Shown one piece after another: positions 39,998 to 64,000 of a stretch of DNA of 64,000 nucleotides (position 1 is the first letter of the stretch; every line of letters starts with the position of its first letter). Location: assembly GCA_046563655.1 (NCBI GenBank), contig JAJCTO010000009.1, positions 930,001-994,000 on the forward strand, given 5' to 3'. The translations under genes and the position numbers were made by a program. The notes beneath the pieces are model-generated. The model was given only the letters and a program-made list of their open reading frames with translations, ran no database searches and was not told where the DNA came from. The DNA comes from Yuukianura sp. NJ FZ-2021. Taxonomy: Eukaryota.

Positions 39998-40664
39998 AAG
40001 TAGTGGGATCTGGAAATTTGGAATTTGCAGCTGAGAGTTCAGGAGCCGAATAATTTACCCAGTCAGCGACTCGGCTTGCATTGGAGGGGCTAATGCCAAA
40101 TTTGGAAGTGAGAGAAACGGCTAGTGGGTTTAGTTGAGTAGGGCCACACACAAATTCAGAAGGGCAAGGTTCGGAAGGGCCAACACAAACAGAAACAAAC
40201 TTTGGTACTGCAGCAGTAGGTTGAGTAGGGGGAAGAACAGAAGTAGTAGTAGCGGCGGTTGTAGTTGTAGTTGTAGGTCCCAGAAGGGAAGTAGGGTGAG
40301 TAGCGGCGGAAGTACGAAGAGAAGTAGGGACTGTAGGGACTGCAGCGTCAGAACAAAAGTTTGGGAAAGTTGTAGTAACCTCCCCAACGACCAAAGGTGA
40401 AATAGGCTGGGTGTTTGATTTTGGACAAGTTCGGTGGTGGTCAAAAAGAGCTTGTAGTTTGGAAAGAAACTCTTCTGGAATAATGGGAATTTTAGAATTG
40501 TGCTTCCTGCCAAAAGCTGAACAATTCTTGTGGGTTTGGAATTTAGGTTGTTTGATTTTTCGGGATTTGGGACGTATTGGACAAACCCTGGGTGGGGCTT
40601 GTACCTTAATTTGAGAAACTGGATTGGGTGGTGAATAGAAGCTGACGTCCCTGCAACGGCAGCT
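39810..40664 (-). CDS. Open frame continuing in phase after the gag stop (Pro/Thr/Ser-rich gag-protease linker)
   Basis: No stop for about 285 codons after the gag TAG. It overlaps the protease frame across a G6/C6 run near 39900. Confidence 0.6.
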   Translation of the reverse strand, partial: SCRCRDVSFYSPPNPVSQIKVQAPPRVCPIRPKSRKIKQPKFQTHKNCSAFGRKHNSKIPIIPEEFLSKLQALFDHHRTCPKSNTQPISPLVVGEVTTTFPNFCSDAAVPTVPTSLRTSAATHPTSLLGPTTTTTTAATTTSVLPPTQPTAAVPKFVSVCVGPSEPCPSEFVCGPTQLNPLAVSLTSKFGISPSNASRVADWVNYSAPELSAANSKFPDPTTFDFEPPPKSPSHDSEFPSGISAAKFISGIDSTPLHFPYRCCLWFYDSSSPVRYRCFSLLCPP

Positions 40665-42835: not shown

Positions 42836-42935
42836 NNNNNNNNNNNNNNNNNNNNNNNNNNNNNNNNNNNNNNNNNNNNNNNNNNNNNNNNNNNNNNNNN
42901 NNNNNNNNNNNNNNNNNNNNNNNNNNNNNNNNNNN
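42836..42935. other. Assembly gap (100 N)
   Basis: N run flanked on both sides by the same 18-mer CTAGTGGCTAGGATTTCA. Confidence 0.99.
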
Positions 42936-48100: not shown

Positions 48101-49090
48101 ATCATGGTTGACTGCGAAACTAAAGCTGTGATCAAGATCATCCCGTATCAAGGGAGAGGAACTGTGTCTGTTGCCGACGCGAGGCGGTACGGAGTGGGAG
48201 GAGCCATTGTCGTGTCACTACTTCAGAATTACTTGCATCTGCGTCATCGAATTGTCGCTGACAATTGGTTCAGCAGTGCAGAACTGGCACAGTACTTGCT
48301 AAATAGGGAGACGTATTACTTGGGGACAATTCAGAAGCGAAGATGTGGCGACATCAAAAAGGCGATGACCTCAAAGCTAAAGAAGGGTGACGTGAAGGCA
48401 TTCACAAAAAATGAAATTCTGATTGAAAGGTTTGTTTTGCTATAATACACATTTTTAGATACATTACATTAACTTTTTTTTATATTTCTTAGATGGTCGG
48501 ACCGAAGAGAGGTTTGCATGATCAATACGTTTGTAAAACATGAAATGCTGCCATCACCATCTCAAAATCTGAGAAACGCGAGGCTAAAACCTGCGTCTGT
48601 ACTTTTGTACAACTCAAAAATGGGAGGCGTGGATGACGTTGACCAAATTATGAAGCCTGTGCAGAGTATCAGAAAGACGCTAAAATGGTATCGGAAAGCA
48701 TTTTTTCACTTGTGGGACTACTCAATTTTCAACAGTCATCGTGCGTACAAAATGTTACATCCCAACTCAAAAACGCGTTACAAGGACTTCGTAGAGGCGG
48801 TCATAAAGGAAATCTGCGAGGAATTTCCTTCAGTGCCAGTCAGGAGAGGCAGACAATCAATCTTGATCTCAACAGAAGTTAGATTGTTGGGAAATCATTT
48901 CCCTAACCAAGCTCATAATGCAGGAGGAAAACCGAAAAAAAATCGTTGCACCTTTTGCAAACTGCGGGGAGTGCGAAGGACCACTACATTTCAGTGCGTT
49001 CAGTGTCAAGAATTCTTGTGCATCACTGGTGTGAAGTCATGTTTTGAGTTTTACCACACGATGCGAAGGCTACCTGGAGGTAAAAAATGA
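45131..49090 (+). CDS. piggyBac transposase, 5 exons, apparently intact
   Basis: Exons 45131-45140, 45212-45390, 45449-45927, 47863-48429 and 48493-49090 splice in frame (MSRDR|YLQIL, ER|WSDRREV). Catalytic triad IDES / ADNWF / GGVDDVDQ and a C-terminal Cys-rich domain. Confidence 0.92.
45967..47703. mobile_element. Foldback-type non-autonomous element (diverged palindromic arms) in transposase intron 3
   Basis: GTTCACTAGTTTGGAGTAG pairs with CTACTCCAAACTAGTGAAC. Arm complementarity continues inward (e.g. CCGATTTAGCCA / TGGCTAAATCGG). Exact ends and target duplication are uncertain. Confidence 0.85.
46636..46848. mobile_element. Tc1/mariner-type MITE, 213 bp
   Basis: Perfect 29-bp TIR CAGTGAGCGCCAGCTAAAACCATACACCC with TA on both sides. 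Confidence 0.93.
47705..47818. repeat. Short tandem repeat, 3 copies of TAGTTAGTGCGCATG..CAGATC
   Basis: Directly visible 38-50 bp units. Confidence 0.85.
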
Positions 49091-49355: not shown

Positions 49356-50537
49356 ATGTTTGTTGAAGAGTTGGGTGAGGAGATTTTAGACCGAATGTGC
49401 TTTGGTTTAAATAAGTTGACTAGTTTAGAATTCAACTCTAACTTTATTGATACAAGCAACCGCAACCAACTTGTAGGTGTAGGTGGACCTGTTGCTAGAT
49501 TTCTGGGTAAAAGTATTTGTTTTCCAAATCTTAAACGTTTTTCCATTTGCCACCCGTTTTCTGAAAAATGTGTTCGCAACTTTTTTGAGTTTATTATTAA
49601 TAATCGTTTGACTTTAGTAACAATTGAGGTTGATTGTGAACCACCACCATTTTACTGTCCCCCATGTAACTTTACCGGTACAATTAGTTGTCGTTTTCCA
49701 AATTTGAAAAATATTTCTGTAGTATGTGCCCCTCTATATTATTTTCATCCAACTATGGTGTCATTGTGGTGGAACATTTGTAGAATTCCAAATTCATTTG
49801 AAACTATTAGAATAGAATTAGACGTAATTAGTTTAAATCGGTTAAGTACTATTGTATCTAGGAGTCTAGCTACTTTGAAGGTGTTAAACCTGAGTAATAT
49901 TTCAATTACTCCGAGGGGACCATTTAGAATTTTGGAACTCTCTCAAATGATAAATTTGAGGGAGTTGACCTTGGAAGTATTACCACATGTACATACTAGG
50001 TTTAGATTAGGTGAATGTGGGTCTGAACCATATGATCGGATAACATTTAAGCCCACACTTCCAGAATCTCTTCAGTTTCTGGAATTAAAAGGTTGTAGTA
50101 TTGCTAGAAGGGATTTAATGCAAACTCTTTCAGCACTTAAGTATTTGTACTATTTAAAATTAGATCGAATTGGAAGTCCAATTGATTTCAACTGTGGAAT
50201 TGATCATGAAGTATTAATTCATATACTAACAGAAGTGGAAGAGCTGAAGGTGTTGTTAATTTCTGGAGTAAGTCAACGGACAAGGGAAAGTTACCTAGTT
50301 GATAAAGAATGCTGGAAGCGCGTCTTATGCTGTTCACGGAGGCTAGGAATTTGGCATGATATTGAAGATATGGAGGAGGGTCGGATGGGATCAGAAGTTC
50401 TGAACGGATTTCAACTGGAATTTGAATTTAAAAATAATTTGGTAAAACAAAATTTCATTTCTGAATTGTTAGGTATTGAAAGCGATTATCATCAAAGTTT
50501 TAATCCACTTCCACATGTACCAAACGATGAATATTGA
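49356..50537 (+). pseudogene. 3' part (leucine-rich-repeat-like) of the piggyBac-split F-box gene
   Basis: LxxLxL motifs (FPNLKRFSI, LATLKVLNLSN, INLRELTL, ESLQFLEL). In frame with the 33129 part once the piggyBac is removed. Confidence 0.85.
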
Positions 50538-50731
50538 TTGAATAAATGTATAACTAAAAGTTTCTAGAAGTTTCTGTTGCAAGAAAAAAAATAGTATTCT
50601 TTGGAAGTGGGGGAAGGGGGGAGTGGGGTGAGGCTGGAGAAGCGATTTTAGTATAAAAGGAGGAAGTTTTGTTCACAAAGCTCATCATTCTGCTCTCGAC
50701 ACTTTCTGCTTTTAGAATCAACAGTTAAACC

Positions 50732-51161
50732 ATGGCTCAGGCACCACCCAATACACCTGAACTACCTTCAGGAGGTAAGAGAAAATAACTAATTTGAAAC
50801 TTTTGTTAAGTTTATAATAGTTTATTTTTCTAAAAAAGGAGAAGAAAAGGAAAATGTTGCTGCAGGAGGTGGTGAAGAGATTGAAGATTTGACTGTGTGG
50901 GATGATGAGGAGAGGAAATTAAACTTGTGGAGTCGTGAGGTCATGTACCGTGGAACTCCATTTACTTGGGTATACATGAAACGGCTTGGAAAGACAACAA
51001 ATTTTGAAGTACGAAACATTCCGTACGTCATGCGTCGTCTCAACAACATTTATCTGCGTTCAAACAGAGGTGAGGTTACTAAATTGGCAGAGTGCCTTCA
51101 AAATTGTTTGAACGAGATGGAAGCTTTTCGTGCAGAGCTTGTTGGAATCCCACATGACTAA
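50732..51161 (+). CDS. Small two-exon hypothetical protein
   Basis: TATAAAAGG near 50653, ATG at 50732, GTAAGA donor at 50775, in-frame second exon, downstream AATAAA. Confidence 0.7.
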
Positions 51162-51340
51162 CAATTTGATTTTTTTTTGGTGTTTTTCTTTTTTTTTTTA
51201 AAGAGAAAAGAACGCAAAATAAAAGCCTTTTGTTTAAGGCATTTGCATTGACAATTGGAATTTGTGTTGTGTTTTTTATTTATTTCACAAAAGGTTGACA
51301 GCATTGAATAGATTTATAAGTTGAATCAAATTTTCTACAT

Positions 51341-51802
51341 TTAAGTTTTTTTTCTAACAAAGTATTTGACTTTTGAATCATTTCTAAAAGTATTACGATT
51401 AAAGTTACAATAAATTGACATTAAACAACAAGAGGTATAAAGTTTATATAAAAAGTAAATTGAATAGTCTCCACAAACTGTACTATTGAAACTTTGGAGT
51501 CTTTTTGTATTTTCTATAAAGTAAGTTTTTAGGCGGGAAGCAAAATTTTGAAAAGATTTATTATAAAAGTTGACTCCCATTCCATAGGAATCAACAAACA
51601 TGAGAGGAGTTTGAGATGATTTCCTAAAAATTGAAATCCAATGTTGTCCAGGAGAATTTGATTCATCCGTATTACAACAAAGGAGTAAAGGATATTGCCT
51701 AATTGAGCAAGAGTTTAAAAAGTCACATGGTATTACATCGAATGAACAATTTTTGTTTGATAAAAAGGAGTTAAGATGAGAAAAAATTTGATTAGTATTC
51801 AT
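51341..51802 (-). CDS. Maverick adenain-like cysteine protease
   Basis: NTDESNSPGQHW, FVDSYG, LQSFNSTVCG give the His/Asp/Gln/Cys catalytic set. Confidence 0.93.
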   Translation of the reverse strand: MNTNQIFSHLNSFLSNKNCSFDVIPCDFLNSCSIRQYPLLLCCNTDESNSPGQHWISIFRKSSQTPLMFVDSYGMGVNFYNKSFQNFASRLKTYFIENTKRLQSFNSTVCGDYSIYFLYKLYTSCCLMSIYCNFNRNTFRNDSKVKYFVRKKT

Positions 51803-53136
51803 GAATCAATAGTTGATCCACTGTAGTCTCTAAAATAAACTGATTTTGAACTGTCAATATGTAACACTGACTGTAGTTCAGAATATACAATTACAGTAAT
51901 TGCTTTTTTCAAAGCTTCTTTAAACTTCAAATCAATTTTAACATTTCCATATTTTGGAGCAGGGAATCCGTCTTTTATGTGTCTCAAGTTGTAAACGAAT
52001 AATGGATTAGATTTAAATTCACTCCAATTTATATCAATTCCAACATCATCATTAGAAATTCCAAGACCATAGAATAGATTACTGTACAACTGTACGTATT
52101 GATTGTCATCAAAATCACAATGAACTGGAAGACTAGAGCCACCATCTCCATTTATACAAACATGAATATAATTTAGTCCAAAATGTTCAAAAGCAAACGG
52201 ATTAGTAGGAAAAGTTCCAATAAAATTTTCAGAAGGAATGAGTCCTAAAATAATCCTATCAGGTACAATTCCAGTTAACAGATTTTCATTCACATTATTT
52301 ATAGTTCCAGGTGAAATTGTATATGTTTTGACTTCATCTCTTTTTAAAGGATAAGTAACTGGTCTTCCTTGTTCCCAAGTTTTAAGAGTAGAAGTGAGTA
52401 GAGATGGAAGAAGGCTTTGTTTTTGAACAATTAATTTACTTTCCAAAATTTGAACTTGATATTTTGCATTAGCTATAGTGGATATGAGTGAGAATTCAGG
52501 AGTAGAGCGAAGGAATGAGACACGAACATCAATTCCAGGAACTAAATACTTATTTTGCATACATATATCTGTAAATGGACGTCCCAAACATTCAATTATA
52601 TTTGAAGATTTTGCCAAATCGTAACGAGTTTTCAAACCGCCTTCTAATTTTACATCCGTATTTTTAGGATCTTTATCTTTATAGAAAAATGCACATTGAC
52701 TTTGAGATTTTTTAAATTCTTTTCCATATGCTAATAAGGTTTCAATATAAGCTCTGTAAGCATAGGAATTATTTGCGGGCGTGATTTGAACTTCATTTAG
52801 ATAAATGGAACATTGTGAAAACAAACTATGAAGAAAATTGTTTGTTGGTATAACAATATCCGGTTCATCTAAAGTTGAATTGCCAGTTTTAACAATACGT
52901 GCCTTAATATATAGTTTAGTTTCGGCAAGGTCCAAAAATTCCACTTGATTTGATTGAATAAAAAATTCAAGTGGAGATTGAGAATCAGTAATTGAATAAA
53001 TTGAATGATACTCAGAAATTGAAGTTGAAGAAAGTGAAACATCATAGACAGGTTCTTCAAAAAGTTGAGTTTCTGATCTGATTACAGTGTAGGGAGCATG
53101 AGATGAATTTAATTTTGAAGCTTTGACTTTAGGCAT
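51799..53136 (-). CDS. Maverick major capsid protein (double jelly-roll, PY/hexon-like)
   Basis: PLEFFI, LDLAETKLYI, NNFLHSLFSQ, YAYRAYIETLL and NPFAF motifs; 445 aa; overlaps the protease start. Confidence 0.9.
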   Translation of the reverse strand: MPKVKASKLNSSHAPYTVIRSETQLFEEPVYDVSLSSTSISEYHSIYSITDSQSPLEFFIQSNQVEFLDLAETKLYIKARIVKTGNSTLDEPDIVIPTNNFLHSLFSQCSIYLNEVQITPANNSYAYRAYIETLLAYGKEFKKSQSQCAFFYKDKDPKNTDVKLEGGLKTRYDLAKSSNIIECLGRPFTDICMQNKYLVPGIDVRVSFLRSTPEFSLISTIANAKYQVQILESKLIVQKQSLLPSLLTSTLKTWEQGRPVTYPLKRDEVKTYTISPGTINNVNENLLTGIVPDRIILGLIPSENFIGTFPTNPFAFEHFGLNYIHVCINGDGGSSLPVHCDFDDNQYVQLYSNLFYGLGISNDDVGIDINWSEFKSNPLFVYNLRHIKDGFPAPKYGNVKIDLKFKEALKKAITVIVYSELQSVLHIDSSKSVYFRDYSGSTIDS

Positions 53137-53257
53137 TTTTTTTGTTTTGTTTTTTTTTCAAAAAATATATCTAATTTTTTTGACTTTATATTCTTCTTCT
53201 TATTTCTCTTGACTCTTCTCTTTTTCTGGGGTCTGGGGTTATTACGAGCTACACGTT

Positions 53258-53641
53258 TCAAAGTACGTTTTTTTTAGACTTGTTTCGAATTCGTCTTCCA
53301 AAACCACTCTGACTAAGAACATCCTGTCCCATTGACTTAAGTGCCTGCAGGCCATGATTTTTAAGAGACTGTTTCATATTTTGATTTCCACCAATCGCAT
53401 CAACAGCAATACCTTTTAATGCTTTTGCTGCATGTGGAAGTATAAATTGTTTAACAAATGGTAACAATCGTCTAGCTAAAGTACCAAAAACTCCACCAAG
53501 TCCAGCCCCTTTTTGTCTCCTAACTCCAGAAAAATATAATCTTGGTTCTACTGTTCCGTATCCAAATTGTGGAATATGATAATTTAATTTAAAAAATTGA
53601 TTCGGCTCATCTACTCGACAGCTAAATCCTGAATGTTTCAT
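53258..53641 (-). CDS. Small Maverick virion protein (amphipathic, protease-cleavage-type motif)
   Basis: RRQKGAGLGGVFGTLARRLLPFVK, located between the minor and major capsid genes. Confidence 0.75.
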   Translation of the reverse strand: MKHSGFSCRVDEPNQFFKLNYHIPQFGYGTVEPRLYFSGVRRQKGAGLGGVFGTLARRLLPFVKQFILPHAAKALKGIAVDAIGGNQNMKQSLKNHGLQALKSMGQDVLSQSGFGRRIRNKSKKNVL

Positions 53642-53654
53642 TTTTTAAAAAATC

Positions 53655-54533
53655 CTAACGTTTTTCTCGAAATCGTAGTGTAACAGTCACATTACCAAAT
53701 TCAAATGCAACTGGTTCAGAAACTTCATTGCGTATATATATGTGTATTACTTCAAATTCTGACACCGCTATATCGTAAAAGAATTGATGTATAAATTCAT
53801 GTGTTTTCTGTTTCCCAGTAATTCCATCATAATCAATCACGCGGAGGCATGGAACCATCACGTGTCCAACAAATTGTGGTCGAATTAAAGGACAATATAT
53901 AAATAATTTAGTATTTCCAGAATTTAAAAACATTGGCATTGTTCCTTTGCCACTAAAAATTCTTTTTCCATTTGAATTTTCATGAGAGTAGTTAAGTTGG
54001 TTAGAACTTAAACCAAGAATATCACATAATTTTGGAGAAAATTCTAAAATTTCTGTTTGGTCGAGTGGAATATTATAAGAAAATGTATTTCCATCAATCT
54101 CAAAAGTACTTCCATCAATTTGTGTATGTAGTACATGAAGTAGTTCAGATTCTGTAGTTATATCTTTGTAAGATGAGATTGGAGGTGATGGTGGTATGAG
54201 AACAGTTGTTGGTACAACAGCCTCCTTCATTTCCACATGTGTTGTTTCTAAAGATTTTTCTTTATGTAAATATATAATTTTTGAAGTAGGTGTTTCCAAA
54301 GTAGATCCTTCACTCTTCTTCTTTTCAAATAAAACATCTCCTTTTCTTATGAATGGGCTACCGTATGTGTAACTTATACTTGTTAAAGCTACTTGCCATT
54401 GACCTGGTGGAAGAGAAATTGGAGAGCCAAGCCGATTTTTAAAATCGGAAATTTTATTTCCAGGGAAAATGTCCATGGAAGCATTAGATTGTAAAGTAAC
54501 ATAAAATGAAGTTTCGTTTCCAATTAAACTCAT
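53655..54533 (-). CDS. Maverick minor capsid protein (penton/PX-like)
   Basis: SFYVTLQSNASMDIFPGNKISDF...WQVALTSISY N-terminus; LFIYCPLI and VTVTLRF C-terminus. Confidence 0.88.
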   Translation of the reverse strand: MSLIGNETSFYVTLQSNASMDIFPGNKISDFKNRLGSPISLPPGQWQVALTSISYTYGSPFIRKGDVLFEKKKSEGSTLETPTSKIIYLHKEKSLETTHVEMKEAVVPTTVLIPPSPPISSYKDITTESELLHVLHTQIDGSTFEIDGNTFSYNIPLDQTEILEFSPKLCDILGLSSNQLNYSHENSNGKRIFSGKGTMPMFLNSGNTKLFIYCPLIRPQFVGHVMVPCLRVIDYDGITGKQKTHEFIHQFFYDIAVSEFEVIHIYIRNEVSEPVAFEFGNVTVTLRFREKR

Positions 54534-54620
54534 AACTTTTTAACTTTTTTTAAAATGTACAACAAAGTTAACGCAGGGATTTAAAAACTCAATGTTAAGG
54601 CACGAATTTAAACCCAAAAG

Positions 54621-54800
54621 GAACGCTGGATTAAATCCACTGTGAACACGCTGGAAAAGAATCCAAGAGAAAACGCTGGATTAAATCCACTGTGGACATG
54701 CTGGAAAAAAAATCCAGAGAAACGCTGGATTAAAAATCCACTGTGCAGAGAAACGCTGGATTAAAAATCCACTGAACACGCTGGGAAAAAAAACCCAAGG
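54621..54800. repeat. Cluster of about 7 palindromic GCTGG(A)-N-(T)CCA units upstream of the capsid genes
   Basis: ACGCTGGATTAAATCCACTG and variants repeat in tandem. Confidence 0.85.
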
Positions 54801-54903
54801 AAAAGGTTAGGGATTCCCCCCTTTTTTAGTAAAAGTTGCACGATCAGTCCCCCAGGGGGGGGCTACCCCTCTCTCACTCTTTTTTTTTTATTATTTTTTT
54901 TTC

Positions 54904-56008
54904 CTAGTATTTTTCCCAATGTAAAACAAAGAGGAAAAAAATGCTGCTGCTGCTTTTTTTAAACCTTTTCCAATTTGTTTTGATTTTACTCCTTTTTTTA
55001 CTTTTTGGAGTTGATGGAGGAGGACTTTTCCTTTTTCTTAAACGAGCAAGCATAGGAGTAGTACGTTTTTTTGAAACAAAATTTACAGTACTACTACTAC
55101 TACTATCCTCTTGCTGCTGCTGCTGCTCCTCCTCCTCTTGCCCTTGACTTTCAATTCCACCACTTCTACCTTCTCCTTCTTCATCCAACAGAAGCTGAGA
55201 CTCATTTGGTAATGTTTCTACTGCTGTACTACTATTTAAATCAGCTGTTGAATAATTTGAACCTGGTTCATATGACATGACACTGGATGAAGCTGGAGAT
55301 GTTTTTTCTAAATGTAACGCTGGAGTAACCTTTGGTGATATGTTCCAGGAACCATAATGTATAGATTTAAATTGCTTTAGTAGTTTTCTTTAGCAGTTGC
55401 AGTTTTAGCAGTTGGTGGATTAATTAATGCAGATTGAAGTTGTTGATGAACTTCATACCAACCTGGTGGTGGTTGAAATTGTTCTCTTCGTTTTGAATTT
55501 TCCAAATAGTATGAAATAACGTTTATAATATTTGAAAAGGGAACTCGATTTTCATCAATAATAACTTCAAACTTATCATTCCAAAATATATTACATTGTT
55601 TCATGTGTTTAAATAATTTTTTTCCTTCCTTAACTTTTGGAATTTGTTCTAAAATATATGGCTCAGTAACTTGAAGCATGGAAGAATTTGTAGTAGTAGT
55701 AGCAACAACAGGGTTTTTTAGTTTTCTATTAACATTTTTAACAAGAATAGGTTGGTTTGCTAAAATTTTTCGTCTCTCGTGTAACCGTTTTGCAAAATCA
55801 TGATAAAGTAAAGCTTTTATATCGTCTGGAATATCCTTTGCACTTAAAATTTTCTGTTTGCTAATTAACAACTCCTCTCCTTTATCACTACCGGTCAACT
55901 TGACATCAATCCTCCTCTCTTTATCTTCTCCGCTGCTACTTACTTCAAATGTTGGATCAAACTTTTTTTATATTCTGCTTCCGAAACTAATCTTAGCCTC
56001 TTCATCAT
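54904..56008 (-). CDS. Maverick hypothetical protein, broken by two single-base frameshifts
   Basis: MMKRLRLVSEAEYKK (56008) joins ORF 55377-55898 across an A7 run. That ORF joins ORF 54904-55278 through an open frame near 55390. Confidence 0.6.
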
Positions 56009-56037
56009 TTTCTTCCAGATTCTACTGTCTCACAGTA

Positions 56038-56370
56038 TTATTTTAATATTCTGGAAAGTACCGGTGGAATTATTGATGCAAGAAGAATTGGTAGGATAGC
56101 TCCACCCCGTTGTGTCAAAATCTTCTTTTTTCTTTTCAATGAACTTTTTCTTTGTTTTACAATTGAAATGATTGCCTTCTTATGTGGTTTTAATTTTGAA
56201 ATAGTTTCTCCACTCACTCCAAAATTTTTTTTATAAATATTTAAAATACATTCACAAATTGACTCAATTTCAGGCTTTGTTGCATTTTTTATTAGTCCTA
56301 TTCGTTGTTCCTTTGCACAAGTTGATAAATATTTCAAAAAATCAAAATTGTTTCGTAATCTTAAAGACAT
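56038..56370 (-). CDS. Small basic Maverick structural protein
   Basis: IESICECILNI...KKKILTQRGGAILPILLASII, a pattern typical of a conserved small Polinton ORF. Confidence 0.75.
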   Translation of the reverse strand: MSLRLRNNFDFLKYLSTCAKEQRIGLIKNATKPEIESICECILNIYKKNFGVSGETISKLKPHKKAIISIVKQRKSSLKRKKKILTQRGGAILPILLASIIPPVLSRILK

Positions 56371-56546
56371 GATGTTGTCAGCGACATGTCTACTCTTCAA
56401 ATGAATAAACTTTTCAAATATACTAAATCCTTTATAAGAATTTAAACATTTAAAATATTTTCTCAGTCTCCTTCCATCACGTATTCATATTTGAACTGCA
56501 GCTACCCCCTCTTATTCCTTCTTCCCCCCTTCTACTCCTTCTCATC

Positions 56547-57527
56547 ATGAGACGCCACCTTAAACTTGAAAAAAAAATTAAACAGCAATATGTCAACCCA
56601 AAAAGTAGTTTTGCTTTTACTGGTCATAACCAAATTGTCAAAACTTTACTTAAATCTAAAGAAAATAAACTCTCGTCATCCACTCTTTCCAAAGTAGTGA
56701 GAAATGCTCTGTCATCTCTACCTGCATATACCTTACACGTTCAAGCTAGGAAACATTATCCCAGGCGAAAAGTCTTTGTTCCATCAATAAAATATCAGTA
56801 TTGTGTTGATTTGGTTGACCTATCCAAATACAAAGACACAAATGGTGGAAATAGATATTTAGCTACCTGTATCGATGCTTTTTCAAAAGTTGCAGATGTT
56901 ATTCCACTGAACAACAAAACTGGACAACTTTTAACTACAACTTTACAAAAAATATTTAAAAAAAGAGGTGTTCCTAAACAATTACAGTGTGATCAAGGAT
57001 CTGAATTTATAAATAAGAACGTAAAAACTATGCTTAAAAAGGCAGGCGTTACTTTGTTTAATACCCGTTCTGAACTTAAAGCTGTGATAGTTGAACGTTT
57101 TAATAGAACTCTCATGAATAGAATTGCAAAGTATATGACACATACAAATAGTACAAGATACACTCATGTTTTGCAAAATATAGTTGAAGCTTATAATAAT
57201 TCCTATCATTCCTCAATAAAAATGACTCCAAATCAAGTCAACAATGAAACTAAAACTCAAGTTTTCTTAAATTTGTACTCAAAGTACAAGTCTAAAGTCA
57301 AATTTCCAAAGTCAAAACTACAAATTCACATTGGTGATAAAGTACTTATTAGTAAAGTCAAATCTACCTTTGCTAAAGGCTACGCCCAATCTTGGAAAGA
57401 TGAAATTTTTACAGTTTCAAATATTTATAATACAAATCCAACAACATTTCAAATTCAAGATAAAGACAGAGTTCCAATTTTTGGAATATTTTACAGAGAA
57501 GAACTTTTAAAAGTTTTTCATTCCTAA
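56547..57527 (+). CDS. Maverick retroviral-like (rve) integrase
   Basis: VDLVDL, IDAFSK, QCDQGSEF, KAVIVERFNRTL, YNNSYHSSIKMTP, FAKGY..W. Confidence 0.95.
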   Translation: MRRHLKLEKKIKQQYVNPKSSFAFTGHNQIVKTLLKSKENKLSSSTLSKVVRNALSSLPAYTLHVQARKHYPRRKVFVPSIKYQYCVDLVDLSKYKDTNGGNRYLATCIDAFSKVADVIPLNNKTGQLLTTTLQKIFKKRGVPKQLQCDQGSEFINKNVKTMLKKAGVTLFNTRSELKAVIVERFNRTLMNRIAKYMTHTNSTRYTHVLQNIVEAYNNSYHSSIKMTPNQVNNETKTQVFLNLYSKYKSKVKFPKSKLQIHIGDKVLISKVKSTFAKGYAQSWKDEIFTVSNIYNTNPTTFQIQDKDRVPIFGIFYREELLKVFHS

Positions 57528-57683
57528 TTTGAACTTCAACCTGGAATGAGCTCATGCAGTTTTTGTTCAATTTGGCAAACATTATCCAATTTTTTCTTTA
57601 AAAGAAATAATACAACTACAATAACCGTGTGTAAAACTTTCTCGTGCAATTGTAACCTAAATAAACTTGGTAGAACTCGTACA

Positions 57684-58096
57684 ATGGACAAACCAGCATC
57701 TCCTAATACTTCTCCATTTGCTACAGAAATGGACACTTATATTAATACTGTCATTCAACCAAACCTACCAATAACTGCACCAGAATCTGATCAACCTTCT
57801 CGCAGAACTGGAGGAAAGAAAATTAGACGACAATCTGCAGCAACTAATCAACGTACACGAAAGGTTACATCACTATCTATGGTTGTTGAAGTCCGAAAAG
57901 AGTTCCCTAAACCGTTTCCACCACCTCAAATTAACTTGGAAGATGGATGGCAAGTTTTTTTGGAAATGAAAACGGATTCTCTGGAACCTCACACTTGCAC
58001 ATTAGAAATCAATTTGATCAAAGTGTGGGAGTTGCTTTGCCAGTTGAGCTGTACGACTGTTTAATGGAAGGGCTTATGAAACTCAAAAGATTGTAA
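57684..58096 (+). CDS. Probable PC4-like ssDNA-binding protein, one frameshift
   Basis: ..LEDGWQVFLEMK then, after a shift near 57973, FSGTSHLHIRNQFDQSVGVALPVELYDCL resembles the PC4 pattern F.G....IR....G..L..E. Confidence 0.5.
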
Positions 58097-58164
58097 CTGT
58101 AAGCTTTTATTATTTCTTCATATATAAGTCAATGGTTTGGGAGGCCAACGCCCCCCCCCCTCCC

Positions 58165-59708
58165 TCGTTTACTTTTGCACTTTTGGGTTTTTCTTTTTGC
58201 ACTTTTGTGCAACTGTTTATATTTCGTTTTTGTCCATGCTCACTGTAGGTTTAGGTGCTTAATTAGTTTTTAAAAATAATTTTAAGAAAATATTTTGCGG
58301 TTTTGTGGTTTTCGTGCAAGTACCTACCTGAAAAATCCTCTCCTCTTTGCACTTTTATACAACTTTTTAGTTTTTTTTTATAGCTTAGGCTCATTTTAAA
58401 CTTGGCATTTAATTTGGTTTTTAATTTTTTTTTTGTGTTTGAAAATACTACTTTCCCGGAAGCTATCTCTCTCGGAAACTTTTTAAATAGTAAATTCTCA
58501 AAAATGTTTCTTTGTAAACATCAGGTTCCTTTCTAAACATCTTTCGAAAATATTTTGAAATGACACAAGACCTAACCTACGGTTCGTCTTGCACGTTTGC
58601 GGTTTTTTAATTGCCGAATACTTCCGTGTCGCGATCGCTAATTAGAATGCACGAAAAAAACTTACGACAAGTTCAATCAATGAAAACTTTTGACCTTGTG
58701 AGTTGATTGACTCGTGTACAAAAAGCAAACTTATTTAAAAAAGCGTACGACAAGTTCAAGCAATGGGAACTTTTGACATTGTGAGTTGATTGACTCGTGT
58801 ACAAAATACAAACCTATTTCCAATATAAACAATTGCAAGCACAAGGGCAATGGTGGGAGGTCTGCCTTCTAGCTTTTCGCCGAGTGAATAACGGTTCACT
58901 CACCGCAAAAGCATTGCGTAACCATTTCAATGCTACAATTTGACTAGTCAGCGTTTCCATCTAGTTGCTTATGATCCGTGGAGTGTTGGTACGCAAGTTT
59001 ATACGACACCCAGTGCTCATTTTGGTATTGGTTTTTTCAAAATCACAAATCTCACCGACTAATTTCTGCCGCTAGACGTCAACCTCGTTTACTATTGGTC
59101 CGCTAGTCCTTCAAAACTACACATACTAGTCGTTTTGAATGGGCAGGGAAATAGCTTTATCGCAAGTCAACTGCCCAAGGACGTTCAAATCCCTCGAGTT
59201 TGACGATAAAGTGCGTCAACCTGACTTCTGATTGGTCGACGTGTTGTTGCCCCAGAGGGCGTGGCTAGTACAATACTGAAATTTGATTGGTCAAAATCCC
59301 AGCCCGTGTATCAATTTCAGCCAATTGGCGTCCAGCTCGCTTTTGATTGGTCGACTTGTTGCTGCCCCAGAGGGCTTTGCCAGTAAAATACTGAAATTTG
59401 CTTGGTAAAATCCCAACCTGTAAACCAATTTCAGCCATTTGGCGTCCATCTCGCTTCTGATTGGTCGACGAGTCGTTGCATCAGTGGGCGTGGCCAGTAC
59501 ATTGCTGCAATTTGATTGGTCAAAATCCCAAGGCCTATACCAATTTTCAGCCAATGGGCGTGCAGCTCGCTTCTGATTGGTCGACATGTCGTTCAAAAAT
59601 GGCCTAGTCCCACCAATGGGAGTGGCTGGTCGCAAAATGTTTTAAAATCCTCTGCCATTTTTTTCTAGGAAGTGCAATAAAATAAACTCGTGGAATCATA
59701 AAAAAATG
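58165..59708. repeat. Left arm of a long inverted repeat
   Basis: Reverse complement of 62461-64000, near-identical; the same 114-aa ORF appears in both arms on opposite strands. Confidence 0.97.
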
Positions 59709-59957
59709 AGATGCGAACCACTGCCGGTCCTCAAAAAGCCAACATAATGTGGTTCAGAAATACATGCCGCGTCACCGATCCCCTTAAAAACTAGTTTTAA
59801 ATAAATCCAAAGTTAGACTATTGGTTTTATTTAGCTTTAATGATGCTGGTTTTTATTTTCAAGCTCATACCATACATTACACAAGATTATGAATTGTATA
59901 AAGTATTGTGAGTGGAATACATATGAAGGAACGCTTTGAAATTTGAAGTTACAAAAA

Positions 59958-61259
59958 TTACTTGAAAAAAATGCTTTTCGTAGATGCGAACCGCCTTCTC
60001 CAATTTCCAGCGTAACGTCTTCCACGGCAATGGTGATAACCATTAGCTCTTCCTTTGTCTTTTCGTCAAAGCTAAGGCCCAATGCAAATTGTCCAATTTT
60101 TCCAGGGTTGAACGTGTCTGATCTCAAGTTTTGAGTGTCAAACACAAAAATCGCATTGCCCTTTACAAATTGCTCATATGTAATGTCGTTTCCGTCGGTT
60201 CCATGTGAAATTAACTTGCACATGTTGTTGTAGGCCAGCATGTAATTTTTGTTTTCAAAGTTCATTTCCTCAAAAACAACTCCCTTTCCTTCGAATTTGA
60301 GTTTCATGTTTTTGATTCCATGTTGGTTTGAAATTAAACGGTGACTTTTCGAGTTTACCGTTGACGACTTCGCTTGTCGTAATTGCAATGCAGAGGAGCT
60401 TTGGCCGAATTGCCGTAGGCATAATTTTTGGAATTTCAAATTCGGTTACCCCAACGGGTACATACGTAGAGAACTTGACGGCGTTGTCAAAAGAATACAA
60501 TGCCATTTTCTTTTTTGCAAATGCGGTGCGAAGTTGAGTAGTCAACTTTTCATTTAGACGATATTGGCGAACGTAAAAGTCTGCACACTCCACTTCAATC
60601 TTGTATTCAGTTGTAGAGGATGGTCCGCACAAGCAAAACTCTGGGTTGGTCCGCTGAATTTGAAAATTGAACCGTGTTCCTGGCGGGAAAAGTCTCGGCG
60701 AAGTGAAAATTCCAAGCATCGGACGTCCAATCATCTCGAATTGATTACTTTTCTTTGCCAGCTCAAGTCGAGCTTTGAAGCTTGGGTTTGTGTCGTCAAA
60801 GTTGTCCATAACATTGCCGGGAAAATAAATTTCCCTGGACAATGTACTGCTTTTCGAACCAATCCCTTGCTGAAGTTGAGTAAATATCCAAGCCTCGTAC
60901 GGGTATGCTCTTGGCCCCTGCGCCACGACTTGCGTGTTGTTGACAACGACTTTAAAATCTTCGATAAATGTGTGAAAGAACAGATTTTCCGGAGCAACCT
61001 TGTCTGTGTCACCGAGTGCCGAACCATCTTTTTTTCGAATGGAAACTACAAATCTGAAAAACGAATCCGACAAATCCAGGTAGGCCATTTGCCAAAACGA
61101 AAAATGAATCGGATTTTCATTTCCTTTTGTGGCATAGTACGACTCTACTTTGAGATAATTGTCCAGCAGGCAAGACACTTCGGTATCTGGCATGGAAAAC
61201 AAGTCCAATTTGGCATTTGTGTCCACCAGCTTCGAGTGCATTGGAACGGTAAGCTCCAT
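59958..61259 (-). CDS. Second, divergent Maverick-type major capsid protein (1-2 frameshifts)
   Basis: LDLFSMPDTEVS, YLDLSDSFFRF, ENLFFHTF, YPYEAWI, SPFNF, then after a 1-nt shift near 60322 HGIKNMKL..NYMLAYNNM..GNDITYEQFVKGNAIFVFD. Collinear with 51799-53136. Confidence 0.88.
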
Positions 61260-61638
61260 TTCCGTGGTTAGTTGGCCTCGTTTTAGGTCAAGTCTGTGAG
61301 ATATTGTTGGGGTATTTTAATTTGCTAAAAATCGCTGAACCTCAACAATGTAGAGCCAATTGTTGTCTAAAGTACGTCGAGTGATGAGGTCGATAAGAGG
61401 TGCCGATGCCGACTGGCGACCGTTTGGATGCAAATGTCCAACTTTTTGGCAGAAAAGTGTATTAAATTTGGCTTTTGGGTACCGATTGGCGACCGTTTGA
61501 AGACAACTCTGCCCACTAAACGTACAATTTTGCACAATTTTTTGGCAGAGTGGTGTTGTCACCTCGGCTGTCGCATGCCGACTGGCCGCCAAACTGGCTA
61601 ATAATGCCAATTTATAGTAGTCAACAGGTGGGGAGACT

Positions 61639-62307
61639 TTAGTTTCTACTATACTTAATGACAAATGTGTAAAGGCAAGTGGTTTCACCGCAGAAGCAGG
61701 CTACCATTTGCACTATTCTTGCACGAAGTAGCATACATAAGTCCAGTTTGCCCCCTTTTTGGTTTCCTTTTTGAAGTTTTTCTAGTTGATTTCTTTCCTG
61801 CAACGTCACTTTGGGTGACTTTTTGATGTTTTTTGTTCTTTTTTGTTGAATCTGTATCAGATTCTGCTCCACTACAGCGTGGGGATTCGATTCTCTCCTC
61901 TTTTCTTCCGCCTTTTTTCGTTTTCGCGTCAATTTCATAGACTTTGACCCTTTGCGGCGTGATTTTTTCGATGTCTTGCGTGTTTCTGTGTCACTTGGCG
62001 ACATTTGGTGCGGGATATGCTGTTCAAATGGCGACATTCTTCCATGTTGCAGCGACGTTTTTTGCAACTTGCGAGGTAACTTGGACCGTCCGTCAGAATC
62101 GTCATCCTCAACTCTCGCGTTTCTTCGATTAGCCGATTCCAGAACTTGCAATTCTTCATTTGAGAGGAACCCCATTACCTGATTTCCATCCTCGTTTTTC
62201 GTTTTCTTGCTATTCTTTGGCGTAACTTGTGCAGAATCCATTGTACCAGTGTCGCTCTCAGTCAAAAACACCCTTGAGGTTACTTTTGCTTCCTGCTTTG
62301 CGAGCAC
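61639..62307 (-). CDS. Lys/Arg-rich low-complexity hypothetical protein
   Basis: 222-codon ORF, first ATG at MDSAQ; KKSRRKGSKSMKLTRKRKK; QKGG near the C-terminus. Confidence 0.6.
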   Translation of the reverse strand: MLAKQEAKVTSRVFLTESDTGTMDSAQVTPKNSKKTKNEDGNQVMGFLSNEELQVLESANRRNARVEDDDSDGRSKLPRKLQKTSLQHGRMSPFEQHIPHQMSPSDTETRKTSKKSRRKGSKSMKLTRKRKKAEEKRRESNPHAVVEQNLIQIQQKRTKNIKKSPKVTLQERNQLEKLQKGNQKGGKLDLCMLLRARIVQMVACFCGETTCLYTFVIKYSRN

Positions 62308-62460
62308 GTCCTTTCCGGTTGCTTGTCAAACTACAAATGAGTATGGTTTGGTAAAGCAGTGAAGATTAAATGTTTTCCAAACTGGCCAGTTTATAATGTT
62401 CTGGCGCACACAGCATGCTGTATATACGCCAGGGTTCAGCAACAAATGATGTCTCGAGAC

Positions 62461-64000
62461 CACTTTTTATGATTCCACGAGTTTATTTTATTGCACTTTC
62501 TAAAAAAAATGGCAGAGGATTTTAAAACATTTTGCGACCAGCCACTCCCATTGGTGGGACTAGGCCATTTTTGAACGACATGTCGACCAATCAGAAGCGA
62601 GCTGCACGCCCATTGGCTGAAAATTGGTATAGGCCTTGGGATTTTGACCAATCAAATTGCAGCAATGTACTGGCCACGCCCACTGATGCAACGACTCGTC
62701 GACCAATCAGAAGCGAGATGGACGCCAAATGGCTGAAATTGGTTTACAGGTTGGGATTTTACCAAGCAAATTTCAGTATTTTACTGGCAAAGCCCTCTGG
62801 GGCAGCAACAAGTCGACCAATCAAAAGCGAGCTGGACGCCAATTGGCTGAAATTGATACACGGGCTGGGATTTTGACCAATCAAATTTCAGTATTGTACT
62901 AGCCACGCCCTCTGGGGCAACAACACGTCGACCAATCAGAAGTCAGGTTGACGCACTTTATCGTCAAACTCGAGGGATTTGAACGTCCTTGGGCAGTTGA
63001 CTTGCGATAAAGCTATTTCCTGCCCATTCAAAACGACTAGTATGTGTAGTTTTGAAGGACTAGCGGACCAATAGTAAACGAGGTTGACGTCTAGCGGCAG
63101 AAATTAGTCGGTGAGATTTGTGATTTTGAAAAAACCAATACCAAAATGAGCACTGGGTGTCGTATAAACTTGCGTACCAACACTCCACGGATCATAAGCA
63201 ACTAGATGGAAACGCTGACTAGTCAAATTGTAGCATTGAAATGGTTACGCAATGCTTTTGCGGTGAGTGAACCGTTATTCACTCGGCGAAAAGCTAGAAG
63301 GCAGACCTCCCACCATTGCCCTTGTGCTTGCAATTGTTTATATTGGAAATAGGTTTGTATTTTGTACACGAGTCAATCAACTCACAATGTCAAAAGTTCC
63401 CATTGCTTGAACTTGTCGTACGTTTTTTTAAATAAGTTTGCTTTTTGTACACGAGTCAATCAACTCACAAGGTCAAAAGTTTTCATTGATTGAACTTGTC
63501 GTAAGTTTTTTTCGTGCATTCTAATTAGCGATCGCGACACGGAAGTATTCGGCAATTAAAAACCGCAAACGTGCAAGACGAACCGTAGGTTAGGTCTTGT
63601 GTCATTTCAAAATATTTTCGAAAGATGTTTAGAAAGGAACCTGATGTTTACAAAGAAACATTTTTGAGAATTTACTATTTAAAAAGTTTCCGAGAGAGAT
63701 AGCTTCCGGGAAAGTAGTATTTTCAAACACAAAAAAAAATTAAGAACCAAATTAAATGCCAAGTTTAAAATGAGCCCAAGCTACAAAAAAAAAACTAAAA
63801 AGTTGTATAAAAGTGCAAAGAGGAGAGGATTTTTCAGGTAGGTACTTGCACGAAAACCACAAAACCGCAAAATATTTTCTTAAAATTATTTTTAAAAACT
63901 AATTAAGCACCTAAACCTACAGTGAGCATGGACAAAAACGAAATATAAAAAGTTGCACAAAAGTGCAAAAAGAAAAACCAAAAGTGCAAAAGTAAACGGG
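62461..64000. repeat. Right arm of the long inverted repeat, cut by the window edge
   Basis: Reverse complement of 58165-59708. Confidence 0.97.

Follow-up and report, generated by a model that had tools for sequence, protein, structure and literature searches.

The last 6 kb of the window (the whole stretch of DNA that was analysed, 64 kb in length) holds a cassette enclosed by long inverted arms, to which we give an even chance of being a non-autonomous, internally deleted derivative of a Maverick, present here as a decaying copy. Its anatomy, the fold and separate lineage of its capsid, the breakpoint at its left end, the existence of other copies and the recurrence of its layout in the DNA of one other organism are established by the results below. 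The first-pass annotation had proposed a satellite with its own capsid. The non-autonomous Maverick derivative in that proposal is supported, whereas a functional capsid of its own is conjecture, given a frame break in the capsid gene and a basic ORF whose frame is not that of the dominant copies.

The cassette either is inserted in a resident Maverick, part of which occupies 51341-58126, or marks the point where that copy is broken. The resident genes are a protease-like ORF (51341-51802, minus strand), the resident capsid (51799-53136, minus), a small ORF (53258-53641, minus), a likely minor capsid (53655-54533, minus), an integrase (56547-57527, plus; Pfam rve, 9.6e-15) and a 172-aa ORF (57546-58064, plus). 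The protease-like and minor-capsid labels were assigned by position and by eye, and Pfam gave nothing for either ORF. This order matches the pro-Mcp-pw-mcp-int arrangement given for vertebrate Mavericks in an extract of PMC8097293. For the breakpoint, we compared contigs from four public runs (X1-X4) of two organisms, and all four runs diverge: other copies of the flanking Maverick continue with one shared, different sequence past 58126 in X1, X2 and X4, and past 58114 in X3. This means that the cassette is an insertion or a breakpoint. Its first letters are AGT, and its left end is probably at 58127 rather than at 58165. Vertebrate Mavericks start with (AGT)2 or (AG)3 according to the same extract (PMC8097293), unlike the cassette, which starts with one AGT trinucleotide. 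As far as the window shows it, the resident Maverick has no sequence in common with the arms by BLASTN. The neighbourhood is rich in repeats, with satellite DNA, a Gypsy-type retroelement and a piggyBac-type remnant.

Near-identical inverted arms of at least 1.5 kb had been claimed at the outset. A BLASTN search of the region against the whole window recovered them as a single alignment of 58166-59704 with 63998-62464, at 99.221% identity over 1540 columns. A repeat search found contiguous inverted pairs spanning 58182-59704 and 62464-63983, with segments of 547 and 518 nt at 100%, 198 nt at 99% and 199 nt at 96% identity. In a global alignment, the arms differ at 12 positions within their shared part (six substitutions and six one-letter length differences). 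The left arm, presumably the left terminal inverted repeat, covers 58127-59704 and pairs with the right arm from 58166; the pairing partners of 58127-58165 would lie past the window end. The right arm (62464-64000) is cut by that end at 64000, and as a mirror image of the left arm it would have about 38 further bases. BLASTN found no second occurrence of the arms or the interior in the 64-kb window, and the sole N run of the window (42836-42935) is distant from the cassette.

Both arms are internally repetitive. A sub-terminal 12-nt motif (58174-58357) has copies at 58174, 58196 and 58346 that are mirrored in the right arm at 63808, 63958 and 63979. With one mismatch allowed, six of its eight matches in the 64-kb window fall within the outermost 230 nt of the arms, and shuffled sequence contains a mean of 1.63 matches and a maximum of 5. 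These motifs may be binding sites for mobilising proteins. Further inwards, the left arm contains two tandem 83-nt units (58654-58819, mirrored at 63347-63512), whose number varies among copies: the X2 and X3 contigs skip 96 nt there, with 16 other letters in between, and arm variants without one 83-nt unit occur among the run contigs. The innermost part of the left arm holds an array of about four 114-nt units (59178-59634, mirrored at 62574-62985), each with several ATTGG (CCAAT) motifs and a GGGCGTGGC-like box. These motifs suggest a promoter or enhancer array; its right-arm counterpart sits 330-740 nt upstream of the basic ORF.

The interior (59705-62463) measures 2759 nt and contains two genes, a capsid homologue and a basic ORF, in line with the roughly 2.75 kb and the two genes first described. 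The double-jelly-roll major capsid gene (59837-61259, minus strand) is split over two frames, the first at 60270-61259 (329 aa) and the second at 59837-60307 (156 aa), by a single frame change located at about 60320-60336. Its C-terminal tail exceeds those of its relatives by about 35 aa, and the nearest relatives (437-541 aa) are 42-52% identical. Directly upstream of the capsid gene, where Mavericks have their small 'PW' gene, lies a Lys/Arg-rich ORF of 200 aa (61639-62241, minus strand) that matched nothing in Pfam. Contigs of all four runs have a one-letter length difference near 61.91 kb (row 61912), so that the window frame departs from the dominant copies downstream of there. The sequences of these two genes indicate that the window copy is probably no longer coding.

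Consistent with the reported lack of a transposase, integrase, polymerase or ATPase, a Pfam scan of the 31 stop-to-stop frames of at least 45 aa in the left arm and interior found no match to these families. Only two of the 31 frames matched anything at E <= 0.05 (DEK_C in one, T-box_assoc and DUF3136 in the other), all below Pfam cut-offs. In a tblastn search of the cassette with the six proteins of the resident element, nothing scored better than E 0.17. The lower AT content ascribed to the cassette was also borne out, with a GC fraction of 0.42-0.45 at 59-63 kb versus 0.30-0.34 at 51-58 kb.

The two capsids of the window are members of one large family (7100 representatives at E <= 0.001), and the divergence noted between them was confirmed. 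Over 308 columns, the N-terminal part of the cassette capsid shares 24% identity with the resident capsid (E 3e-21); for its C-terminal part, the figure is 29% over 94 columns (E 3e-7). In the capsid tree, the cassette capsid falls in a separate clade with strong support, its nested groups of 5, 7 and 9 rows having local values of 99-100. Members of this clade have intact ORFs of 421-444 aa, except for one of 541 aa that contains an insert. NCBI calls some relatives 'F54H12.2-like', and PF21738, a double-jelly-roll-like domain, matched 4 of 103 members. In place of the frame-broken cassette capsid, we modelled the intact capsid of a relative, L001, with a 103-row alignment (pLDDT 91.4, pTM 0.90). 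The best Foldseek match of this model in the PDB was the mavirus major capsid (6g44_A, E 6.7e-16), ahead of iridovirus, PBCV-1 and Sputnik capsids. In BFVD, the top match was a bracovirus-borne protein, and virophage, adomavirus and giant-virus capsids came next. By this predicted fold and by the tree, the cassette capsid is of the double-jelly-roll type, as first annotated, and of a lineage distinct from that of the resident.

The interior is present at about 98% identity in contigs of the four public runs, and was detected in two studies; contigs of 906-2228 nt from X1, X2 and X4 cover it. These copies reveal that the cassette is not single-copy. The summed contig word depths of X4, which are not copy numbers, are 141-235 for the interior, 49-60 for the inner arms and 6.5-11 for the outer arms; if taken at face value, most interior copies in that organism would be without these arms.

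The same layout was found in L001, a metagenome contig of 3944 nt whose inverted arms (at least 450 nt, 84-94% identity) reach both contig ends and enclose a basic ORF (1272-1670) and an intact 436-aa capsid of the cassette clade. The capsid proteins of L001 and the window are about 50% identical. At the DNA level, only the capsid coding part is similar (66% over 784 nt) and the arm sequences are unrelated. In a further locus, L002 (1218 nt), the basic ORF (507-785) is preceded at a distance of about 300 nt by a likely minor-capsid gene, as in an ordinary Maverick module. Direct repeats lie upstream of the basic ORF in both L001 and L002. The inverted-arm layout is thus seen in two of the three readable loci of the clade.

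Our preferred reading is that 58127 to about 64038 would be a non-autonomous element of about 5.9 kb from a Maverick/Polinton lineage other than that of the resident, in or at a break of which it would sit, and a member of a family with further genomic copies. It would have arisen by internal deletion, losing polymerase, integrase, ATPase, protease and penton. Retained would be two terminal inverted repeats of about 1.54-1.58 kb, with their sub-terminal motifs and inner promoter-like arrays, and one contiguous piece of the morphogenesis module, namely the basic 'PW-position' gene and the major capsid gene. The arms may then be genuine termini of a transposon or virus, which an autonomous Maverick would recognise in trans through its protein-primed polymerase and its integrase.

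The cargo supports this reading, being Maverick structural genes in Maverick order: a small gene lies upstream of a capsid of the resident's own protein family, as in the mcp-pw-Mcp order in the extract of PMC8097293. The AGT start also resembles Mavericks, and the arms are long terminal inverted repeats, whose 1540 nt we count within the 100-1500 bp quoted for Polintons in part of PMC10748475. Against the reading, the element of about 5.9 kb falls far short of the 13-25 kb given for Polintons, it has no ATPase, protease or penton, and no autonomous element with matching arms, i.e., a helper, was seen. The single AGT trinucleotide, the L002 layout and, if taken at face value, the X4 depths also count against it. 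A possible parallel is the Repbase entry Polinton-N1A_NV from Nematostella, where we take the 'N' to mean non-autonomous in Repbase usage. This N-labelled Polinton still has a major capsid protein, which was used in trees; the portion of the source consulted places that capsid outside the main Maverick/Polinton capsid lineage (PMC11296320), unlike the cassette capsid, which lies within a large animal family. The literature searched contained no minimal two-gene form conserved in two lineages.

A satellite-like mini-virus or element is possible, if unlikely: this would be a lineage of conserved 4-6 kb replicons with long inverted ends, under selection to encode a major capsid of their own together with a basic protein that condenses DNA. 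A helper Maverick would provide the polymerase, integrase, ATPase, protease and penton, and the window copy would be a dead member. L001 argues for this by repeating the layout with an intact capsid despite its unrelated arms, as do the distinct clade of intact capsids and a cassette GC unlike that of the resident. Also in its favour, all ten known contigs of the closest capsid relatives measure 1.2-6.0 kb (one is 5991 nt). However, metagenome contigs are usually short, and other members of the capsid family are likewise found on contigs of 2.6-6 kb, so that contig size proves nothing. The clade capsid of L002 adjoins a likely minor-capsid gene, as it would in a normal module, and neither window gene keeps the reading frame of relatives or dominant copies. 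Evidence of a helper, particles or free linear DNA was not seen, and a capsid that lacks a penton, ATPase and protease of its own would need to be compatible with those of the helper, notwithstanding its low identity to the resident capsid. Virophages, whose helpers are giant viruses, are 17-30 kb in size and encode their own ATPase, protease and penton and, in most cases, replication proteins. The cassette resembles mavirus and Sputnik in being small and in having a double-jelly-roll capsid of its own, structurally closest to that of mavirus in the L001 model, and it would depend on a larger relative to replicate; unlike them, it retains two genes alone, and its dependence on a helper is conjectural. 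Bidnaviruses have parvovirus-type capsids and ssDNA genomes. Their genome segments, linear DNAs of about 6 kb with terminal inverted repeats, are historically tied to Polintons in an extract of PMC4061559; the cassette shares the size and the repeats, but gives no sign of a free segment.

We consider it quite unlikely that the arms are not termini, the cassette being a non-mobile local rearrangement of a second full-length Maverick lineage. Here, the region upstream of the basic gene would have been duplicated in inverted orientation downstream of the capsid gene by a recombination or replication error. The promoter-like inner arms fit this, as do the direct repeats upstream of the basic ORF in L001 and L002, the nest of repeats around the cassette and the X4 depth gradient from interior through inner to outer arms, which is what an abundant parent and a rarer rearranged form would give. 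Yet those depths are not copy numbers, L001 would require the same event twice, and the outer limit is a clean breakpoint of the flanking Maverick that begins with AGT and is followed by a repeated sub-terminal motif.

It is highly improbable that the cassette is a DNA transposon of the Foldback or Galileo type with a captured Maverick fragment, although the arms do have the long, internally repetitive character and variable unit number (83-nt and 114-nt units) that form the hallmark of Galileo/Foldback ends in part of PMC3573991. The cassette differs in its cargo of viral structural genes, conserved together with the layout in L001, and in terminal letters that fit Mavericks; the Pfam scan of the left arm and interior revealed no transposase remnant, and no relative of the P-type transposase was seen in the cassette. 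That L001 has the same gene pair between unrelated arms argues for long association over chance capture. An assembly artefact, i.e., a false fold-back or mis-join, is very improbable even in so repetitive a region, with many one-letter length differences between the window and the run contigs and none of the listed contigs spanning both arms, as the 12 differences between the arms mean that they are not a copied string, the interior was found in two studies, the L001 layout is independent, and a 2228-nt contig from X2 (record 12, 60336-62561) passes the junction of interior and right arm (62463/62464) by 98 nt.

The cassette studied here is an element of about 5.9 kb, in which a left arm (58127–59704) and an inverted right arm (62464–64000) enclose an interior of 2759 nt (59705–62463). 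A BLASTN comparison of 58101–64000 with the whole window gave a single alignment, which pairs 58166–59704 with 63998–62464 at 99.221% identity over 1540 columns, and it detected no further copies of arms or interior in the 64-kb window. A repeat search of 50000–64000 placed a chain of inverted pairs over 58182–59704 and 62464–63983 (two fully identical ones of 547 and 518 nt, one of 198 nt with 99% identity and one of 199 nt with 96%). The first-pass annotation had described inverted repeats of at least 1.5 kb around a capsid cassette less AT-rich than the neighbouring Maverick. Both features hold, as the GC content is 0.42–0.45 at 59–63 kb versus 0.30–0.34 in the resident Maverick, a partial copy at 51341–58126. 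The right arm is truncated by the window end at 64000, and its terminus lies beyond the window.

Each arm contains two copies of an 83-nt tandem unit (58654–58819 and 63347–63512) and about four copies of a 114-nt unit (59178–59634 and 62574–62985). Every 114-nt unit carries several ATTGG/CCAAT motifs and one GGGCGTGGC-like box, which we take, from general knowledge of such motifs, to make up a promoter/enhancer array. An identical 98-aa ORF with an ATG start runs through the 114-nt array of each arm (59291–59587, minus strand; 62580–62876, plus strand). Pfam returned no family for it when the longer stop-to-stop frame at 59294–59641 was scanned, and it most likely results from the repeat structure. 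A 12-nt motif is clustered in the outermost 230 nt of each arm; six of its eight window matches are found there (1.6 expected by chance). The terminal inverted repeats, 1540 nt at 99.2% identity, agree with those of Polintons, for which a range of 100–1500 bp is quoted (PMC10748475). The inferred left end at 58127 opens with AGT followed by CAATGG, and thus has one AGT and no repeat; the reference here is the (AGT)2//(ACT)2 or (AG)3//(CT)3 of Maverick ends, a motif described for vertebrates only (PMC8097293). The idea that a single short element inserted independently twice to give the two arms was also considered and rejected, as the left arm has no matching flanking short duplication, a weak observation made by eye.

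The resident Maverick consists of a protease-like ORF (51341–51802, minus strand), its own capsid gene (51799–53136, minus), a small ORF (53258–53641, minus), a 292-aa ORF that is likely the minor capsid gene (53655–54533, minus), three small ORFs, an rve integrase (56547–57527, plus; Pfam 9.6e-15) and a 172-aa ORF (57546–58064, plus). The protease-like and minor capsid labels are by position and eye only. This gene order fits pro-Mcp-pw-mcp-int, the order reported for vertebrate Mavericks (PMC8097293). By a list of open frames alone, no polymerase or ATPase was apparent at 42.9–51.4 kb. By BLASTN, the arms have no similarity to the resident Maverick as far as the window covers it. A direct repeat of about 52 nt occurs three times at 54621–54802, between the likely minor capsid ORF and a 124-aa acidic/basic ORF, and has length variants in contigs of public sequencing runs.

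Five such runs, from two studies, contain 35–59% of the sampled words of 59500–62700; none of the five is on record as an RNA run. The contigs of four runs were compared with the window over 50000–64000, three of them (X1–X3) from one sample of organism A and the fourth (X4) from organism B. Contigs of the resident Maverick depart from the window after 58126 in X1, X2 and X4, or after 58114 in X3, where a mismatch lies just before. Beyond this point, all four runs share one alternative sequence of 106–255 nt that is absent from the window. This common continuation means that the cassette starts at 58127, where it was inserted into the resident copy or where that copy was broken. Judged from these contigs, the cassette is not part of the resident element's normal structure.

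Copies of the interior at about 98% identity were found in X1, X2 and X4, in records of 1400 nt (60336–61735), 2228 nt (60336–62561) and 906 nt (60342–61247) that differ from the window at 23, 38 and 19 positions, respectively; the 2228-nt record (record 12) extends 98 nt past the junction between interior and right arm. In X2 and X3, some arm variants are one 83-nt unit short. Variant arms and interior copies thus come from four runs and two coded organisms, as copies known without their flanks and ends. The listed interior contigs of X1, X2 and X4 end at 60336–60342, beside the capsid frame break described below, and the copies may differ there. Summed word depths in X4 were 141–235 for the interior, 49–60 for the inner arms, 6.5–11 for the outer arms and mostly 21–48 for the resident Maverick; in X2, most bins ranged from 230 to 1700 and one right-arm bin stood at 18. 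These depths are not copy numbers; at most, their unevenness hints that the interior and the arms may not always occur together. The run contigs leave parts of 50000–64000 uncovered, and single contigs of X4 appear to join 59858 to 60336 on opposite strands (side 36) and to skip from 60186 to 62118 (side 30).

The interior encodes a Lys/Arg-rich basic ORF of 200 aa (61639–62241, minus strand) at the Maverick PW position and, beginning 380 nt after it on the same strand, a capsid homologue that is split over two frames (60270–61259, 329 aa; 59837–60307, 156 aa, with a stop-to-stop frame that extends up to 60445). In an alignment with intact relatives, the first frame is collinear to the conserved FNFKP motif and the second frame resumes a few residues further on. 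The gene therefore changes frame exactly once, between about 60320 and 60336. Its C-terminal tail is about 35 aa longer than those of the relatives. Within the basic ORF, all four runs show a one-letter length difference near 61.91 kb, so that the window's frame departs from that of the dominant copies, which may reflect either decay or an assembly slip in a homopolymer. The window's copy of the cassette is probably dead.

The named ORFs of the cassette had no Pfam match at E ≤ 0.01, PF21738 included. Among the 31 stop-to-stop frames of at least 45 aa in the left arm and interior, Pfam identified no polymerase, integrase, ATPase or transposase, and two of them had sub-threshold chance matches. 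The rve integrase that marks an autonomous Maverick/Polinton was likewise without a Pfam match in the cassette. Searching the cassette by tblastn with six proteins of the resident element gave nothing better than E 0.17, and the resident integrase found only itself and the integrase of a Gypsy-type element at 36.5–36.9 kb. At the sensitivity of the 31-frame scan and tblastn, the capsid and the basic gene are therefore the only cassette genes, as had been claimed from the sequence alone.

To place the cassette capsid, we compared it with the resident capsid and with relatives in databases. The two capsids of the window are 24% identical over 308 columns (E 3e-21), and their C-terminal parts 29% (E 3e-7). 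A word-based protein search found only four relatives (42–52% identity, 437–541 aa), and these closest relatives all lie on contigs of 2.6–6.0 kb from metagenomes or Logan. A profile of the four, searched against 1.84 billion representatives, matched 7100 sequences at E ≤ 0.001, 4202 at ≤ 1e-10 and 871 at ≤ 1e-30, and by these matches the protein family is very large. Some members carry the NCBI name 'F54H12.2-like'. The Atlas neighbours are eukaryotic clusters, with arthropods and nematodes named, and the DJR-like domain PF21738 is found on 15–24% of their members. In our alignment of 103 family members, PF21738 matched four (best E 2.2e-5) and Capsid_N one. In a FastTree phylogeny of 105 rows, from which no rows were dropped, the cassette capsid falls into nested sets of five, seven and nine rows with local support of 99, 100 and 99. 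Its nearest rows are the metagenome locus L002, which fills only 29% of the columns, two database proteins (P0001 and P0002) and the metagenome locus L001. The resident capsid is placed elsewhere in the tree and is at most 34% identical to any row. P0004, a close relative from Logan (541 aa), is extended between its two jelly rolls by an insert of about 100 aa, with an internal duplicated stretch (alignment columns 235–325).

For the naming of the capsids by sequence, phmmer against PDB entries gave a chance match only (E 0.86). Structure prediction used the intact capsid of L001. The AF2 model, built from the 103-row alignment, reached a pLDDT of 91.4 and a pTM of 0.90. Foldseek against the PDB ranked the mavirus major capsid protein first (6g44_A, E 6.7e-16, TM 0.59), followed by Singapore grouper iridovirus (TM 0.62–0.64), PBCV-1, Sputnik and faustovirus, with 244 matches at E ≤ 0.001. 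The predicted fold is a double jelly roll, as judged on this relative of about 50% identity and not on the broken window gene. The first-pass view of a DJR capsid clearly divergent from the resident one, for which it had called for a phylogeny and a structure prediction, is upheld by both. Against BFVD, the same model matched a bracovirus-borne protein first and then virophage, adomavirus and giant-virus capsids. The bracovirus-borne protein, from Cotesia sesamiae Mombasa bracovirus, is uncharacterised (21% identity to L001:1828–3135, E 2.2e-22); it presumably represents a Maverick capsid located in a bracovirus segment.

A scan of metagenome contigs identified two loci of the same capsid clade, L001 and L002, both from one data set. 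None of 62 pattern matches in viral contigs and none of 96 in genome contigs was confirmed. L001 (3944 nt) contains an inverted arm (3–454), about 800 nt that include direct repeats, a 132-aa basic ORF (1272–1670), an intact capsid gene of 436 aa (1828–3138) and a second arm (3365–3795) that runs on as tandem units of about 243 nt to the contig end; its arms are 84–94% identical to each other. At the DNA level, only the capsid coding part of L001 resembles the window (66% over 784 nt, spanning the window's frame-break position). The window and L001/L002 share no arm homology, as alignment is confined to capsid coding DNA. L002 (1218 nt) contains, in order, the end of an ORF, tandem repeats of 128–142 nt, a basic ORF of 92 aa and the start of a capsid gene. 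The ORF end at the start of L002 belongs to P0160, a protein of 147 aa without a Pfam family, whose match to the resident 292-aa ORF is weak but collinear (E 0.004 and E 0.15). By this match it is likely a minor capsid gene, a label that the weakness of the match and the lack of a family keep tentative. The inverted-arm layout is thus seen in two of the three readable loci of the clade; in L002, the two genes belong to a module of ordinary appearance. The basic ORFs of the three loci are of low complexity and 23–29% identical, with a common C-terminal pattern in L001 and L002, and we therefore treat them as positional equivalents only.

How is the cassette best explained? By the definition of a Polinton, for which polymerase and integrase are required (PMC5499653), the cassette is excluded, as it has neither, and it is far smaller than the 13–25 kb of these elements. 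We consider the chances about even that it derives from a second Maverick lineage by internal deletion and is non-autonomous. Such a derivative would have retained its long inverted ends and one contiguous piece of the morphogenesis module, namely the PW-position gene and the major capsid gene, and its ends would be recognised in trans by the polymerase and integrase of a helper. The arm length in the Polinton range, the Maverick-like cargo and its order, the clean host break with an AGT start, the outer 12-nt motif, the further copies and L001 all count in its favour. Against it count the right end, which is out of view together with any target duplication, the autonomous partner, of which none was seen, a resident element without arm sequence and the uneven depth in X4. 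In autonomous Mavericks/Polintons the target site duplication measures 5–8 bp, usually 6 bp. The cassette probably works like a Maverick and descends from one.

The first-pass annotation had proposed a satellite or mini-element of Mavericks. The second part of this proposal agrees with the favoured derivative, given the lack of replication genes, the further copies and L001. A true satellite, in which the lineage would be under selection to retain a capsid of its own, is possible but doubtful. The capsids of the clade are intact, and the reading stays alive because the inverted-arm layout recurs in a second lineage, L001; however, it is weakened by the ordinary-looking module of L002 and by the two frame problems of the window copy, the capsid frame break and the basic-ORF frame. 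Only tentatively can this be widened to the proposal that animals and the small eukaryotes of environmental samples harbour conserved capsid-encoding Maverick satellites of 4–6 kb, with long inverted ends and only a capsid and a basic gene. These would replicate, integrate and be packaged with the polymerase, integrase, ATPase, protease and penton of a helper Maverick, on which they would depend, and might either form shells of their own or disturb the assembly of the helper. It is unlikely that the cassette arose by local inverted duplication within a second, decayed Maverick. A Foldback-type transposon with captured cargo is very unlikely: the long, internally repetitive inverted ends of Foldback/Galileo elements are present in the 83-nt and 114-nt units of the arms, but such elements have a related transposase in autonomous copies and variable or absent cargo, and the sole other case seen, L001, has the same cargo. 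An assembly artefact is the least probable reading, as the arms differ at 12 positions of a global alignment of their shared part (six substitutions and six one-letter length differences) and are therefore not a copied string; contigs as such are no proof of one molecule across both arms.

Non-autonomous Mavericks are barely described. In the literature searched, the phrase is used only for Tlr1, to which two sources apply the term 'non-autonomous polintons' (PMC4028283, PMC5499653), and in a Repbase name, Polinton-N1A_NV, an entry with a capsid that has been used in trees (PMC11296320). For the anole, an absence of non-autonomous copies is noted (PMC3014272), and 96% of vertebrate Maverick loci are given as degraded (PMC8097293). 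We found no description of a two-gene, capsid-keeping mini-element in the literature on non-autonomous, deleted or satellite-like Mavericks, a search whose scope excluded Repbase and the supplements; the latter may list truncated or non-autonomous Mavericks.

Mavericks/Polintons are regarded as both viruses and transposons, although their particles are unobserved (PMC8097293). A minimal derivative with long ends and exactly the capsid and upstream basic gene, in two distant lineages, has two possible meanings. Either the pair has been retained for a purpose, for instance a satellite lifestyle or helper interference, or the capsid/basic region is the last part of the genome to be lost. In both cases, the cassette is a small, tractable object for the sequences recognised by the Maverick replication and integration machinery, and it bears on the question of continued capsid production and on the origin of Maverick parasites. 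If the satellite reading is true, the cassette would represent the first parasite of a satellite-like kind on an endogenous animal virus-transposon, and would give indirect evidence that Mavericks still make particles. If the cassette amounts to no more than a rearranged fragment in decay, it counts as ordinary repeat debris.

The resident Maverick adjoins other repeats. Left of its protease-like ORF, 49356–51160 (plus strand) contains a 393-aa leucine-rich-repeat-like ORF with a weak LRR_4 match and a small gene that looks two-exonic (about 50733–51160). As run contigs over 50000–50466 have word depths similar to the resident Maverick, these genes may be cargo of that element. A piggyBac-type transposase lies in two halves in two ORFs at 47954–49090 (plus; Pfam DDE_Tnp_1_7, profile positions 113–264 and 280–349), and on this domain evidence the region is a broken piggyBac-type copy. 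The sole gap of the window, a run of 100 N at 42836–42935, separates it from a Gypsy-type LTR retroelement, so that the two sides are ordered by the scaffold. The retroelement (35695–42062, minus) has a GC content of about 0.45–0.53, far above its surroundings, and encodes pol (35695–38604; RVT_1, RNase H, integrase zinc-binding and rve), an aspartyl-protease ORF (38519–39964) and a gag ORF (40665–42062), all on the minus strand. A proline-rich ORF at 34430–35650 is without a family. From position 1 to about 28000, the window is one satellite array, in which Tandem Repeats Finder resolved blocks of a 155-nt unit every 543 nt or so, with periods of 376–388 nt in places, and the GC content is flat at 0.36–0.39.
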